Origin: Candidatus Moraniibacteriota bacterium
Lineage (GTDB): Bacteria; Patescibacteriota; Minisyncoccia; Moranbacterales; UBA1568
Length of the DNA: 48,403 nt
Assembly (NCBI GenBank): GCA_023261695.1
Contig: JAHFON010000005.1
Coordinates: 1 to 48,403 of the forward strand
Direction of reading: 5' to 3'
Shown: positions 1 to 46,696 of the stretch, piece by piece
Numbering within the stretch: the first letter of the stretch is position 1
Layout of the letters: each line of letters starts with the position of its first letter
The notes under the pieces: model-generated
What the model saw: only the letters and a program-made list of their open reading frames with translations
Database searches by the model: none
Told to the model about the DNA's origin: nothing
Position numbers and translations under genes: made by a program

Positions 1-344
1 GATTATAGGAAATGATAAACAGAACAGATCAAAGACAGACAAGGAAAAGTAATTGCTTCTATCAAAATTATTTGATAGGTCCCTAAATACTTAGCCATTT
101 GCTGGAAACTCTGGAGTATCTGATGGTACTATGGTAAAATTGTTCCATAGAACAAAATATGCCAAGTAAAAAACCAATCAGTGTATCTTATTTTCAAAAT
201 AAGAAACCAGACAATCAGCAGGAAAGATTAAAAACCATGGAGGACATCGCGGTTTTTAGAATCCTCAGAGACCAAACGCTAAGTCCGCCAATCGGCGGAA
301 AAATATGGTCCGTTCTCTCTGGCGACAGAGAGCTAACATGAAAG
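1..344 (+). ncRNA. Group I intron (3' part) in 23S rRNA at the site equivalent to E. coli L1931
   Basis: Core elements P TTGCTGGAAACTC (99-111), Q AATCAGCAGG (213-222), R TCAGAGACCA (265-274), S AAAATATGGTCC (300-311); P3 CTTAGC/GCTAAG; P9 hairpin 315-332; terminal G344 followed by exon AGCGAAATTCCTTG. The 5' end is outside the window. Confidence 0.9.
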
Positions 345-1985: not shown

Positions 1986-2113
1986 GGTGTTTGGATAAAA
2001 ACTAACTTGGGCGCTTGGCTTCTATGTCATGGCAAGTGGAATAAATATCTTTTCGCTTTCCTTGTCATCAGTTTTATTTCTTGGTAGTCTAACAAAGTGC
2101 TTGAAAAAAACAG

Positions 2114-2189
2114 GCCGTTGTAGCTCAGTTGGTAGAGCACGTCCTTGGTAAGGACGAGGTCATCGGTTCAATCCCGATCAACGGCTCCA
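2114..2189 (+). tRNA. tRNA-Thr(GGU)
   Basis: Full cloverleaf, anticodon arm CGTCC-TTGGTAA-GGACG, encoded CCA. Confidence 0.97.
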
Positions 2190-2383
2190 AAATTAGACTT
2201 TCCGATAACGAAGATGTAATTAAACGCAATAACTCTGACACTTTTCGCGTTTACCGTCTTTTTGTAACAAGTTAATCGCTAAAAAGTCTCAAATGTGCTG
2301 AACGAGTACAGTGGCTTGTGAAAAGTTAAAAAGTTTAATATTATGACCGTATAGTCGTATATAAACTTTTTAACTAAACCATT

Positions 2384-3379
2384 ATGAATAACAAAACATT
2401 AGTTAGTTTCATTATTGCTGTCTTGGTTGTTGGTGGAATTTGGTATTTTGCTTCAAATAAGCAAGAGGCAAAATTAGAAACAACTAAAGTTAAAATTGCG
2501 AACTTGCCAATCACTGATGGCCTACCGCTTTACCTTGCTTTAGAGAAAGGGTATTTCAAAGACGATGGACTTGATGTAGAGCTTGTAAAATTTGAAGCTC
2601 CCAATCAACTTATTGACGCGATAATGTCTGGTCAAGTTGATTTCACTTCGCCAAGTGGCGCGATGGGGATTACTGGCGTTGCTGATTTCAAAAACCCTGA
2701 CAAGGTCAAGATTTATGTTGCCTCAGGAGATGATGAGAAGACACCCGTGGATTCAGTGTTCGTTAAAGCAGACAGTCACATTACTTCAATTCAAGAATTG
2801 AAAGGAAAGAAGCTTGGTATTCTACCTGGTATCCAATGGCGAACAATCTCAACTCATATTTTGGCAAAGAATAATTTGGTAGCCAATAAAGATGTAGTTT
2901 TAGTAGAACTAGCGCCGTCACTCCAAGTTACTGCGCTTGCTTCTGGAGAAATTGACGCCCTCCTCGCTCTTGAACCAATGTCCACGACACTTAGGGCCAA
3001 GGGCATCGGAAAGGAAATCCTACGAGCAGCCGCTGCAACGACAATTGCTAACCCATTCTTCCCTGGGGCTGGTGCAGTGCGAGTAGATTTTGCTATGAAA
3101 AATCCTCACACAACAGAAAAGGTGTTAAGGGTTTTTGCTCGTGCTATTAAAGAAATCAGAGAAAATCCAGATCAAGCTCGGCAGTATTTAAAGGGGTATA
3201 CGCCACTTGATGATGCGTTGATTGCTCAGGCGTCAATTCATAAATTCAAAATGTATGACGAGATAACCAATGATGATATCGCGATGATTCAGAAATTCTA
3301 CGATATATTTTCGACGTACAAAATCGTGGATAAGCAAATGGATTTCAAACATCTTTTGTATTCTCCAACCTTAAACTAA
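2384..3379 (+). CDS. ABC transporter substrate-binding protein, NitT/TauT/SsuA family
   Basis: N-terminal membrane anchor; LPLYLALEKGYFKDDGLDVEL and ITSIQELKGKKLG motifs of NMT1/SsuA-like proteins. Confidence 0.9.
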   Translation: MNNKTLVSFIIAVLVVGGIWYFASNKQEAKLETTKVKIANLPITDGLPLYLALEKGYFKDDGLDVELVKFEAPNQLIDAIMSGQVDFTSPSGAMGITGVADFKNPDKVKIYVASGDDEKTPVDSVFVKADSHITSIQELKGKKLGILPGIQWRTISTHILAKNNLVANKDVVLVELAPSLQVTALASGEIDALLALEPMSTTLRAKGIGKEILRAAAATTIANPFFPGAGAVRVDFAMKNPHTTEKVLRVFARAIKEIRENPDQARQYLKGYTPLDDALIAQASIHKFKMYDEITNDDIAMIQKFYDIFSTYKIVDKQMDFKHLLYSPTLN

Positions 3380-4129
3380 ATGAATGCTTTTATCTCTGTT
3401 CAAAATCTTAAGAAATCGTTTAACAATACCGAAGTCTTCCGAGACTTCAGTATTGATGTTGAGCAGGGAAAAATAACGGCGATTTTCGGACCGAACGGCT
3501 CCGGAAAATCAACTTTGCTAAACATTCTTTCTGGTATCACCACCAAAGATGGCGGTCAATTTGAGATTGAAAATTTTAATCACTTTGGATTTAGTTATAT
3601 CTTTCAAAATTATCGCGAGTCGTTGCTCCCATGGCGCACAAATTTTGAAAATGTCGCTTTGCCACTAGAAATACAAAAAAAGAGTAAGCAAGAGATAAAG
3701 AAAAAAGTTGAGGAATTGCAAAAACTTTTTGAATTCAAATTTGATTGGGAGAACTATCCATACGAATTGAGCGGAGGGCAACAGCAGATTTTGGCGTTTA
3801 TGCGCGCCCTCGTTACGAGTCCAAAAGTTTTATTCATTGACGAACCATTTTCTGCGCTTGATTACGAAAATAACTTGCGATTGCGAGAGCACCTCCAGAA
3901 ATATTATCTGAAATACACGCCGACAATTTTATTGATTACTCATAACATTGAGGAGGCAGTTCATCTTGCTGAAAAAATTGTAGTGTTCTCACAACGACCA
4001 ACCAAAGTACTGGAAGTTATAGAAAACCCTTTGTCATATCCAAGAACAGTACAATCGCTTAAAGCAGAGCAATTTCACCAAGTGAAAGACAAGGTGCTTT
4101 CTGCTTTTCAAAAAGTCACAAACTTATGA
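3380..4129 (+). CDS. ABC transporter ATP-binding protein (TauB/SsuB-like)
   Basis: Walker A GPNGSGKS, signature LSGGQQQ, Walker B IDEPFSALD, H-loop ITHNIEEA. Confidence 0.95.
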   Translation: MNAFISVQNLKKSFNNTEVFRDFSIDVEQGKITAIFGPNGSGKSTLLNILSGITTKDGGQFEIENFNHFGFSYIFQNYRESLLPWRTNFENVALPLEIQKKSKQEIKKKVEELQKLFEFKFDWENYPYELSGGQQQILAFMRALVTSPKVLFIDEPFSALDYENNLRLREHLQKYYLKYTPTILLITHNIEEAVHLAEKIVVFSQRPTKVLEVIENPLSYPRTVQSLKAEQFHQVKDKVLSAFQKVTNL

Positions 4130-11188: not shown

Positions 11189-11350
11189 GTATGAGCACGC
11201 TACAATTGAGCGAAAAGTAGCCTAAACCCCGGTTTTCTACCGGTGGCATGGTGAAAAGTCCAGTTAGACATAAAGAACCCATCATGTGGGGTGTCTAACT
11301 GGCCATATCGGGAAACCGGTATGAGGGGCTTCGGCCTCTACTCATGTGGT
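11189..11350. ncRNA. Candidate structured RNA (unassigned)
   Basis: Nested stems TACCGGT/ACCGGTA, ATGG/CCAT, CCAGTTAGACA/TGTCTAACTGG, plus a cUUCGg hairpin at 11324-11339. Confidence 0.45.
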
Positions 11351-44961: not shown

Positions 44962-45270
44962 ATGAAATTCATCATCATCTACATTACGCATCCGAATTTA
45001 AAGATTGCCAAGAAAGTGACTGAGGCTTTGTTGAAAGACAGACTGATTGCCTGTGTGAACTATTTTCCTATCGAAAGCGCGTACTGGTGGAAGGGAAAAA
45101 TCGAGAGCGGAAAAGAAATTGTCTCTTTGATGAAAACAAAAAAGGAAAATTGGACAAAGGTGAAAAAAGCGGTGGAAACGATGCATCCGTACGAAACCCC
45201 GTGTATCATGAAACTTGAAGTAAAGTCCAACAAAGCGTACGCCGATTGGATTAAGAAAGAGACAAGATAA
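44962..45270 (+). CDS. cutA: Divalent-cation tolerance protein CutA
   Basis: LIACVN, SAYWWKGKIE, HPYETPCI. Confidence 0.93.
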   Translation: MKFIIIYITHPNLKIAKKVTEALLKDRLIACVNYFPIESAYWWKGKIESGKEIVSLMKTKKENWTKVKKAVETMHPYETPCIMKLEVKSNKAYADWIKKETR

Positions 45271-45301
45271 AAAGACGTAGCGGTAAAATTAAATACTCTT
45301 T

Positions 45302-45832
45302 ATGCAGGAACAGAAGAATCTAGCTTTTATAGACGGCCAGAATCTCTATATGGGTACGGCTAAACGTGAACAGAATCCGTGGCGGATAAATCTGAAGCGT
45401 TTCCGTATATATCTGGAACAGAAATATGGGATAGAGAAGGCGTATTATTTTCTGGGATATGTGCAAGAAGCGAGAGATGGTCTTTATGAGGAAATACAGG
45501 CGGCTGGTTTTGTTTTGATATTCCGCGAGCACAATGTGGCGATGCTCGGGAAAAAGAAAGGGAACGTTGATTCTGACATCATTTTCAATGTTATGAGGCG
45601 TTTGTATAGAGGGGAGAATTTCGGGAAGATTTTCCTTGTTTCTGGTGATGGTGATTATAAGATGTTAGTAGATTTTCTTATCGAAGAGGGGAGGTTCGGC
45701 AAAATGCTATTCCCGAATCGACAGTTCGCCTCCTCATTGTATAAAAAACTGGGTTCCGAATACTTCGATTATCTGGAATCTGTACACGGTAAGATTGGTC
45801 AAAAAAAAGAAAAGGGCTCCTTAGGTAATTAG
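45302..45832 (+). CDS. NYN domain (LabA/DUF88, PIN-like) protein
   Basis: FIDGQNL, KKGNVDSD, LVSGDGDY acidic motifs. Confidence 0.9.
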   Translation: MQEQKNLAFIDGQNLYMGTAKREQNPWRINLKRFRIYLEQKYGIEKAYYFLGYVQEARDGLYEEIQAAGFVLIFREHNVAMLGKKKGNVDSDIIFNVMRRLYRGENFGKIFLVSGDGDYKMLVDFLIEEGRFGKMLFPNRQFASSLYKKLGSEYFDYLESVHGKIGQKKEKGSLGN

Positions 45833-45892
45833 CCGTTTGGATCCCTTTTCGTCTGAATGTTTGTATTATAGCAAAATGAAAGAAGTTGTCAA
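45801..45892 (-). ncRNA. Candidate ~58-nt antisense sRNA with its own promoter and terminator
   Basis: Minus-strand TTGACA (45892-45887), 16 bp, TATAAT (45870-45865) with extended TG; hairpin 45809-45850 followed by U8. Confidence 0.6.
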
Positions 45893-45955
45893 TCGGCTAT
45901 ACCACAAGTAATTTCTTTGAATTCGTATTTTGTCTGAGTTTCTATGTGAATAGGT

Positions 45956-46696
45956 ATGCTGAAATTTTTTCAACAATTTCCGGAAATTACCGCGCTTATG
46001 TCTGAACGGACAGATGGTTCTATGCGGTACTTTGAAGATGGCAGTGAACCGCAAAATGTAGAAAATAGGAAAGTTTTTTTTAGAAAAAACGGTATTGAGA
46101 GTGAGTTGGTAATCGTACCGGATATTGTGCACGGAAATCACGTGATCACAATAGATGCTGAAAGCAAACGGTTCCAAGAAAAGACAGACGCTTTGGTAAC
46201 TTCTGACAAGGGAATATATCTTTCAGTTACGGTGGCTGATTGTCTACCGATTTTATTTTATGATCCGATACGCGGAAATATTGGCATTGCGCACATGGGT
46301 TGGCGAGGCGCGCTAAGCGGTGTGGTTACAGAGACTATGTCAGCTTTGATAAAACTGGGAAGCGATGCCAGAAATGTTTCTGTCGCCATCGGTCCCTGCA
46401 TCCAAAAGTGCCATTTTGAAATCTTAAAAGAAAACGCGCCTCTCTATAAAGAATACGCGGAATTTGTCTATTATGAGCGAGCTGGCTCCACTCAGGCTGT
46501 GTCGGGCCAGGGCGGAAAAGTATATGTAGATCTTCCGAAAATAGCGTCTAAACAATTGGAGCAAGCCGGAATTCCGTCTGAAAATATTAACGCGAGCGAT
46601 GTCTGCACTTTTTGTGAAAAAGAAAAGTGGTTTTCCTATCGCCGAGACAAACCGGAAAAAGTGCAGGCGATGGTAGCGGTCATCGGTATGCGATAA
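45956..46696 (+). CDS. pgeF: YfiH/PgeF family purine nucleoside phosphorylase-like protein
   Basis: VHG, DALVT, VADCLPI, AHMGWRG, IGPCI, FSYRR. Confidence 0.92.
   Translation: MLKFFQQFPEITALMSERTDGSMRYFEDGSEPQNVENRKVFFRKNGIESELVIVPDIVHGNHVITIDAESKRFQEKTDALVTSDKGIYLSVTVADCLPILFYDPIRGNIGIAHMGWRGALSGVVTETMSALIKLGSDARNVSVAIGPCIQKCHFEILKENAPLYKEYAEFVYYERAGSTQAVSGQGGKVYVDLPKIASKQLEQAGIPSENINASDVCTFCEKEKWFSYRRDKPEKVQAMVAVIGMR

Follow-up and report, generated by a model that had tools for sequence, protein, structure and literature searches.

The window analyzed here, the whole 48,403-nt contig JAHFON010000005.1 of Candidatus Moraniibacteriota bacterium, contains a gene for an NYN-domain nuclease and, converging on its 3´ end from the opposite strand, a gene for a structured RNA with a predicted length of about 58 nt. 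Comparison of many such loci indicates that the RNA is a conserved, structured, NYN-linked small RNA (sRNA) gene. An earlier note, written from the letters of the window, had proposed that the two form an RNA-antitoxin module in which the RNA overlaps the stop codon of the nuclease gene. The proposal is supported in part, as the sRNA gene is conserved and almost invariably paired with NYN, the module is compact, and RNA-only remnants exist; the stop-codon overlap, in contrast, does not define the system. At slightly less than even probability, we propose a self-contained two-gene module in which the convergent RNA would serve as the dedicated neutralizer of the nuclease, likely by direct binding, with pairing at the 3´ end perhaps contributing.

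The linkage is apparent from both partners. From the protein side, we assembled 88 NYN-homologue loci; when one genome of each species was scanned, at least 594 confirmed relatives emerged, of which 80 loci were kept, from Saccharibacteria, Paceibacterota, Peregrinibacteria, Gracilibacteria and two Bacteroidota, one of the latter being the isolate Parasediminibacterium sp. JCM 36343 (locus L094). A covariance model of the RNA (R1, built from 76 RNA elements and used at a match threshold of E < 0.01) found the RNA at the 3´ end, on the opposite strand, in 84 of the 88 loci, so that the check suggested in the earlier note, an inspection of the 3´ flanks of NYN homologues for a conserved promoter and a covarying hairpin, came out positive. 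The four loci missed by R1 are a weak match (L105), two visible variants (L006 and L009) and a shortened gene (L103). A convergent TTGAC[AT]-16/17-TATA[AC]T promoter and a hairpin past the stop codon are present in seven of eight homologous loci inspected, and the eighth, L008, has the RNA too. In the RNA sense, nearly all loci follow the consensus TTGACA-N16/17-TATAAT-N~7-AUyAAGACGAAAAGGGnnCCGAACGGnUAAnUnCCUAAGGnnCCCUUUUCUUUUU. The promoter, whose lack of conservation the earlier note had named as fatal to its idea, is conserved: the hexamers are kept across homologous loci and the spacer sequences are free.

From the RNA side, a pattern scan of metagenome contigs yielded 80 loci, with 81 RNA elements analyzed. 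An intact convergent NYN open reading frame (ORF) accompanies 69 of these elements, and one more locus (L193) holds NYN by tblastn; counted by locus, NYN accompanies the RNA in about 72 of the 80, and most of the others appear to be RNA genes that outlived an NYN deletion. The remainder consist of a second tandem copy (L176), an element cut by the contig end (L192), a locus with only the NYN C-terminal codons (L145), and eight loci without an NYN gene, two of them with fewer than 270 nt on that side. Several orphan RNAs adjoin traces of the NYN C-terminus, directly after the terminator of another gene, which indicates that NYN was deleted and the RNA gene retained. Among 61 related genomes, R1 matches were found in eight; in five, the window's genome included, the match lies beside an NYN orthologue, and the other three comprise a locus with NYN fragments containing stops (L133), the end of a RhuM gene (L132) and one weak match. 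At L133, the RNA and its promoter are intact beside the decayed NYN gene. Decay is asymmetric overall, with promoter-bearing RNA genes outlasting deleted or broken NYN genes (L133, L145, L177 and others) and RNA-less NYN genes nearly absent. Orthologues of the window's NYN gene are themselves sporadic in the 61 genomes, occurring at 60% identity or more in four further genomes and at 35-39% in four places.

The RhuM-associated locus, L132 (G023:C2, 323-1534), carries a 403-aa RhuM-family gene that ends in the RNA hairpin, giving the tail KKEKGSLGN. The RNA cassette is joined at the A-tract, and no NYN remnant lies between the RhuM gene and the RNA, the locus being either a recombinant or a precise NYN deletion. 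Since a convergent promoter or hairpin is absent from 29 other RhuM loci, we rejected as unlikely a generic 3´ RNA cassette for toxin-like genes and read L132 as a one-off remnant or recombinant. RhuM-family genes are very common in the order, occurring in 81 of 201 genomes sampled, with as many as 9 matches in one genome; many have in-frame stops, suggesting frequent decay.

The RNA gene and its conservation

Scans of the window's own genome (labelled G000) covered about 860 kb in 43 contigs. The RNA promoter matches the sigma-70 hexamers at 12 of 12 positions, carries the TG of an extended -10 element and is the best site within the 8.4 kb scanned. The genome holds 10 perfect 12/12 sites, two of them with TG, where composition leads one to expect 0.64 and 0.04; this excess indicates that the organism uses the sigma-70 consensus and that such a site rarely arises by chance. 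The earlier note had described a minus-strand promoter without an ORF to drive, and the promoter indeed lies where it was placed. No conserved minus-strand ORF was found 3´ of the promoter, the longest antisense ORFs in the coding sequence (CDS) having a median of 39 aa in 76 homologues, and a hidden antisense protein driven by this promoter was rejected because these ORFs are not conserved. By sequence, the locus has the marks of an independent transcription unit: hexamers 16 nt apart, a G+C-rich hairpin and a U-tract, all on one strand.

We placed the predicted RNA start 7 nt past the -10 box (45858). In minus-strand sense, the hairpin reads GAAAAGGG-A-UCC ... GGA-G-CCCUUUUC; within it, an internal loop of AAAC (family consensus GAAC) faces UAA, and the inner GG/CC stem is capped by a 7-nt apical loop. 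The fold has a minimum free energy of -15.5 kcal/mol (z = -2.6 versus shuffles), and the hairpin also folds on the plus strand, at -20.4 kcal/mol. Both direct reading and the fold thus agree with the RNA of about 58 nt, a hairpin followed by U8, that had been predicted in the earlier note. R1 scores 81.1 bits at this RNA, which is present as a single copy in the genome. No Rfam 15 family matches the element at the gathering threshold, and at E <= 10 over positions 45700-46000 the best matches reach 13-19 bits against cut-offs of 40-90. Shine-Dalgarno (SD) mimicry by the UAAGGAG of the window RNA, as well as a likeness of the plus strand to the 16S 3´ end, were set aside because the last bases vary among homologues.

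The promoter and the RNA structure are both retained in the family. Scored against the sigma-70 hexamers, 55 of 85 elements have an upstream site of 10/12 or better and 76 of 85 have one of 9/12 or better; in reverse-complement controls, the counts fall to 1 of 85 and 13 of 85, respectively. In one alignment (A2), 87.2% of the cells are paired and 11 of 15 pairs have changes on both sides; none of 500 shuffles attains its covariation score, and all slid controls score lower. A second alignment (A6) has 6 of 15 pairs changed on both sides, with paired cells at 87-89% across the two. For the metagenome loci, pairing in the outer helix amounts to 96.1%, a figure that leans toward the structure of the model to which the sequences were aligned, and five pairs have double-sided changes. 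The outer stem in this set has about 39 G.U cells and at most 3 non-standard cells; because G.U cells would be A.C mismatches on the plus strand, they indicate that the RNA is read from the minus strand. The U-tract lies 3´ of the hairpin on the minus strand only and is kept where the CDS ends earlier.

Conservation also extends to unpaired parts of the RNA. The internal loop (GAAC facing UAA) and the leader AUCAAGACGA are kept across Patescibacteria classes, beyond the needs of pairing; antisense action alone would not require this, and it fits protein contact. The internal loop may resemble the UAA/GAN motif, on which a literature search turned up nothing.

The DNA is conserved for the RNA and not for the peptide tail encoded on the other strand. 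In 28 of the 69 NYN loci reached from the RNA, the CDS ends ahead of the RNA core; elsewhere it enters the hairpin in one of three frames (19, 16 and 6 loci), and the encoded tails include KKEKGSLGN, KKKRAP and KRKGGLR. Given this variable stop position and the use of three frames, the stop-codon overlap, which is present in the window as the earlier note said, is incidental. Compared with an orthologue of 82% identity (L002), the window has nucleotide similarity from 45291 to 45893 only, that is, from about 11 nt ahead of the ATG to the -35 box.

Some loci have more than one copy of the RNA or of the nuclease gene. Tandem RNA duplications occur at L055, L073, L107, L172, L176 and L271; at L055 and L073 there is a promoter-like site upstream of each copy, and at L107 the copies lie end to end without an intervening promoter. 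At L093, another complete RNA copy (161-223, minus strand) lies 1.8 kb upstream of the module, and L057 has a second NYN-domain gene (2113-2607, plus strand) directly past the RNA promoter.

More distant relatives extend the association. In an even sample of 150 Patescibacteria genomes, the canonical RNA was found in 9 and the NYN subfamily profile (E <= 1e-15) in 41, the RNA adjoining NYN for the four best protein matches plus two others. We then defined a class B from 20 more-distant NYN genes, taken from the upper part of the ranked list and retained if they had a leader, a U-tract and a promoter matching at 8/12 or better. Nineteen of the 20 passed, as did L006-L009, and the twentieth has two tandem hairpins. 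The class B NYN proteins are relatives at about 35-40% identity and have a convergent RNA of the same architecture, with a similar leader (AUCACGAUGA, versus AUCAAGACGA in the window's class, class A); their stems differ from those of class A, and they have a conserved apical element of their own, GGUUUCGUCC-like. RNAalifold returned a consensus of 0 pairs for the heterogeneous 21-sequence alignment, so the class B assignment is drawn from single-sequence folds and from promoter and U-tract geometry only. Taken together, the two classes suggest that the RNA diversifies together with the NYN protein, which would favor protein contact over pure antisense action.

The NYN gene and its genomic setting

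The NYN ORF product matches Pfam PF01936 over residues 9-131 (45.4 bits against a cut-off of 24.2, E = 1.5e-11), and a profile of 48 NYN homologues matches PDB 2qip, the entry of the LabA-like NYN protein VPA0982, at E = 1e-10. An AlphaFold model of the protein (predicted local distance difference test 87.8, predicted template-modelling score 0.85) was used with Foldseek, which ranks 2qip first (TM 0.70, E = 4.8e-8), followed by the MARF1 NYN domains (5yaa and 6fdl; E ~3e-4) and then by the FEN/T4 RNase H family. The domain match and the predicted fold uphold the assignment to NYN made in the earlier note. Invariant columns in the 48-sequence alignment include D11, N14, D90, D116 and D118; on the basis of the NYN/PIN literature, we presume D11, D90, D116 and D118 to be the catalytic positions. 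The gene product is thus expected, from its sequence and modelled fold, to be a small metal-dependent ribonuclease of the NYN/PIN-like type. One study reports that a bacterial NYN protein acts as a Mn-dependent, sequence-nonspecific single-stranded RNA nuclease (10.1101/2024.04.08.588522). A second, canonical NYN paralogue, about 26% identical to the window's NYN, is near-universal among the 61 related genomes; in this genome it ends in an ordinary terminator on its own strand and lacks a convergent promoter.

The expression signals of the nuclease gene are weak. In the window, there is no SD ahead of the ATG. Among 72 loci, a -10-like hexamer is found 6-9 nt ahead of the NYN start codon in 36, with TG in 28 (background about 1 per position), and an SD-like core is found in only 6. 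Because this hexamer adjoins the start codon and SD sequences are rare, about half of the loci appear to make a leaderless NYN mRNA, with an extended -10 element as its promoter; the call is weaker for the window, where the hexamer sits farther from the ATG. Leaderless expression of NYN suggests low output. The distance from cutA to the NYN start codon is only 31 nt (45270-45301), without an SD, and NYN may be co-transcribed with cutA here.

Table 1. Features of the NYN-RNA module and its flanking genes in the window
Feature	Position	Strand	Remarks
cutA	44962..45270		upstream of NYN gene; ORF list and Pfam
Possible -10 box of NYN gene, TAAAAT	45284..45289	+	direct reading; 12 nt ahead of ATG; weak call
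NYN-domain (PIN-like) nuclease gene, 176 aa	45302..45832	+	ends KKEKGSLGN*; stop TAG 45830-45832
U8 tract, intrinsic terminator of RNA	45801..45808	-	A8 on + strand, encoding Lys-rich NYN tail
Predicted 58-nt RNA	45801..45858	-	leader AUUCAGAC, hairpin and U8; ends predicted from promoter geometry and fold
Structured core (hairpin)	45809..45850	-	P1 GAAAAGGG/CCCUUUUC, extended by UCC/GGA
Extended -10 element of RNA promoter, TGcTATAAT	45873..45865	-	TG 45873-45872; TATAAT 45870-45865; 16-nt spacer to -35
-35 element of RNA promoter, TTGACA	45892-45887	-	marks outer edge of conserved module
Cu-oxidase_4/PgeF-type gene	45956..46696		downstream of NYN gene; ORF list and Pfam

No third gene is conserved beside the module. 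At 72 loci, the 122 ORFs that border it are varied, and most belong to housekeeping genes (ribosomal proteins, SecY, RuvB, DnaB, gyrase, tRNA synthetases, RNase R and RNase Y), with a minority related to toxin-antitoxin (TA) systems, restriction or mobility (PemK twice, EcoRI methylase, GmrSD, SocA, AAA_15/21, IS200 transposase and recombinase). In Parasediminibacterium sp. JCM 36343, the module lies between a recombinase-domain gene (2-1090) and a gene for an AAA_15/AAA_21 (OLD/AbiEii-like) ATPase (2322-3518), a context that looks mobile or defense-island-like. At two loci, the NYN frame is open into the upstream frame (L214, 995-1897, and L210, 251-1411, both on the minus strand), with a GNAT acetyltransferase domain in the upstream frame of L214; these may be read-through fusions or missing stop codons. 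A comparison of empty sites through cutA-pgeF adjacency in relatives gave no result, the genus being too divergent (best PgeF identity 49%, gene in 15 of 40 genomes).

Some further features of the sample were noted. The stretch of the window is present in three DNA sequencing runs from one groundwater study. Its 23S rRNA gene is split by two group I introns (59-332 and 1150-1346; RF00028, 53 and 58.6 bits) and is followed by 5S rRNA and tRNA genes, and a full-length LOOT RNA lies at 11219-11339 on the plus strand (RF03000, 78 bits). Elsewhere in G000, five other near-consensus promoters each have a G+C-rich hairpin and a U-tract within about 20-60 nt downstream (C16:5714(+), C29:49823(+), C11:45552(+), C5:702(-) and C2:16694(-)) and are candidate small RNAs or leader attenuators.

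Proposed function and alternatives

In the mechanism we propose, the NYN RNase would be made at a low level, from a leaderless mRNA in many relatives, and the RNA of about 58 nt would be made in excess from its very strong convergent promoter. The RNA would bind the NYN protein as an inhibitor or pseudo-substrate and may also pair with the complementary 3´ end of the NYN mRNA. Should the supply of RNA stop, through transcription shut-off or loss of the module, the nuclease would be freed. We read the RNA as an antidote because of its near-obligate pairing with NYN, the strong signals of the RNA gene and weak signals of the NYN gene, the lack of a protein partner, the scattered distribution in unrelated surroundings and the asymmetric decay. 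That the RNA is an antitoxin, by whatever mode, seems to us somewhat likelier than the contrary. That it neutralizes the NYN protein by binding, in the manner of type III TA systems, is a tentative proposition, possible and yet rather doubtful, and direct RNA-protein neutralization is slightly favored over pure antisense control at the 3´ end.

The strongest competitor is a type I-like action exclusively in cis, which we consider unlikely: the RNA would pair with the 3´ hairpin and A-tract of the NYN mRNA, the duplex would be cut, for instance by RNase III, and the mRNA, stripped of the 3´ hairpin that protects it, would decay, with the protein untouched. The convergent layout, abutting or overlapping, suits this model, being invariant over about 170 loci of both RNA classes even where the inner domain of the RNA is replaced or lost, and the hairpin is by construction common to both transcripts if the mRNA reaches it. 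Some type I systems (txpA/RatA, bsrG/SR4 and par of pAD1) use just such a 3´ overlap with a shared bidirectional terminator. The overlap is, however, limited to the 3´ untranslated region and last codons, and a CDS that ends ahead of the RNA core, as it does in 28 of 69 loci, leaves no direct means of blocking translation. A search for cognate pairing between the RNA and the NYN mRNA 5´ end gave no signal (-11.5 versus -10.7 kcal/mol, p = 0.065). Antisense pairing would also leave the phylum-wide conservation of the loop and leader unexplained, and a soluble nuclease of 176 aa is unlike the usual type I toxins.

Tight linkage, co-diversification and the conserved internal loop and leader would also fit a ribonucleoprotein in which the RNA has a positive role, as cofactor, scaffold, activator or preferred substrate of NYN, for example in gating RNA processing or defense. 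This alternative can point to the bacterial NYN protein that is reported to be implicated in trimming of CRISPR RNAs (10.1101/2024.04.08.588522). The RNA, however, has no variable segment that could be used as a guide, and a search of its own genome for trans targets or mimicry returned U/A-tract matches only, with no extended complementarity or similarity elsewhere outside the U-tract. The persistence of an intact RNA after NYN loss suits an antidote, whereas a cofactor would be useless alone, although recent deletions could look alike. On balance, we judge a positive ribonucleoprotein improbable.

The least plausible alternative, which we regard as very improbable indeed, is that the hairpin is simply a bidirectional NYN terminator, with a promoter that is fortuitous or an insulator against read-through: the hairpin does fold on both strands and the NYN gene requires some terminator, but the promoter position and hexamers are kept over hundreds of species as the spacer drifts, the U-tract occurs on the minus strand only and G.U pairs favor that strand, the loop and leader are conserved far past the needs of a terminator, the RNA and its promoter persist after NYN deletion, and the housekeeping NYN paralogue has an ordinary terminator.

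Several observations weigh against neutralization of the nuclease by the RNA and must be set beside the evidence for it. Linkage and co-diversification are expected for any adjacent, co-inherited genes and are no proof of neutralization, and a strictly convergent, abutting layout is unneeded by a protein binder acting in trans and fits antisense control better. In the subclades of L049, L053 and L062, the RNA is cut down to a plain hairpin without the conserved internal loop, and the loop therefore cannot be a universal protein-binding determinant. The strand test on A2 gave 120 G.U versus 52 A.C cells, a ratio of only about 2:1. The NYN protein matched no PADLOC-DB 2.0 defense model (best HEC-09, E = 0.054, 11 bits) and no NCBIfam model. 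Viral contigs gave 0 pattern matches for the RNA, phages gave no protein match, and the sole plasmid match was a distant NYN protein of 28% identity on one plasmid; with so scant a presence in phages, viruses and plasmids, the module is not obviously an addiction system of mobile replicons.

With the neutralizer model retained as the preferred one, a broader and, to our minds, still speculative picture can be drawn from the sequence comparisons. The loci may represent a large unrecognized class of RNA-neutralized NYN RNase modules in Patescibacteria, with spill-over into Bacteroidota and the window's module as first example, that would combine a leaderless NYN gene, a strongly expressed RNA of new fold (conserved leader, covarying stem and GAAC/UAA internal loop) and several co-diversified specificity classes, join type I architecture to type III logic, and maybe act as an abortive-infection or addiction switch in bacteria of minimal genome.

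Significance and comparison with known systems

To our knowledge, sRNAs and the biology of TA systems and defense are almost unexplored in the Candidate Phyla Radiation, because its members are hard to grow. A literature search, in which subscription journals were not covered, found no description of a partner RNA of NYN proteins or of a small-RNA TA system in this radiation. If the RNA does neutralize the nuclease, NYN would be a new toxin fold among RNA-antitoxin systems, and the module would represent a new architecture blending type I and type III features, and its RNA would found a new family of structured RNAs. Should the antidote idea fail, the RNA would still stand as a new, conserved and well-supported non-coding RNA that has its own protein partner. 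The hypothesis is accessible, given a module of about 600 bp, an RNA of about 58 nt and a carrier in culture, Parasediminibacterium sp. JCM 36343.

The protein shares its fold and acidic residues with other NYN proteins (PF01936), namely LabA/DUF88-like proteins, 2qip, MARF1 and the CRISPR-associated NYN of Bacteroides fragilis. The canonical NYN paralogue, the sole other NYN gene of the genome that we examined, differs from it in having no dedicated convergent RNA. Measured against Rfam, the RNA is a small terminator-ended bacterial sRNA that matches no family at the gathering threshold.

Among RNA-antitoxin systems, the type III systems ToxIN, CptIN and TenpIN resemble the module in pairing an endoribonuclease (here assigned by fold) with a small structured RNA as its sole partner. 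Like the module, they are compact, horizontally scattered and without a protein antitoxin, and tandem RNA copies occur occasionally here (L055, L073, L107, L172 and L176). In type III systems, the antitoxin is an array of direct repeats that lies ahead of the toxin gene on the same strand, with a terminator between, and is processed by the toxin, which has a ToxN/Kid-like fold. The RNA described here is instead a single unit, downstream and convergent, with its own promoter and terminator and no upstream co-transcribed repeats, and its protein partner has an NYN/PIN-like fold.

The nuclease type I toxins of SymE/SymR and RalR/RalA are also among the closest systems, the use of a nuclease as a type I toxin being described for RalR/RalA (PMC4041452). 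Type I systems with 3´ overlap (txpA/RatA, bsrG/SR4 and par RNA I/RNA II) likewise have a convergent RNA, as well as a strong RNA promoter beside weak signals for the protein gene; their RNA is complementary to the 3´ end of the mRNA and shares a hairpin with it, as the window RNA would if the NYN mRNA reaches the hairpin. Their toxins are small, hydrophobic membrane peptides, usually of fewer than 60 aa, in contrast to the 176-aa soluble NYN-fold protein of the window. The module further departs from them in that the overlap is minimal and often outside the CDS, that no pairing signal was found at the 5´ end, and that the RNA loop and leader are conserved phylum-wide.

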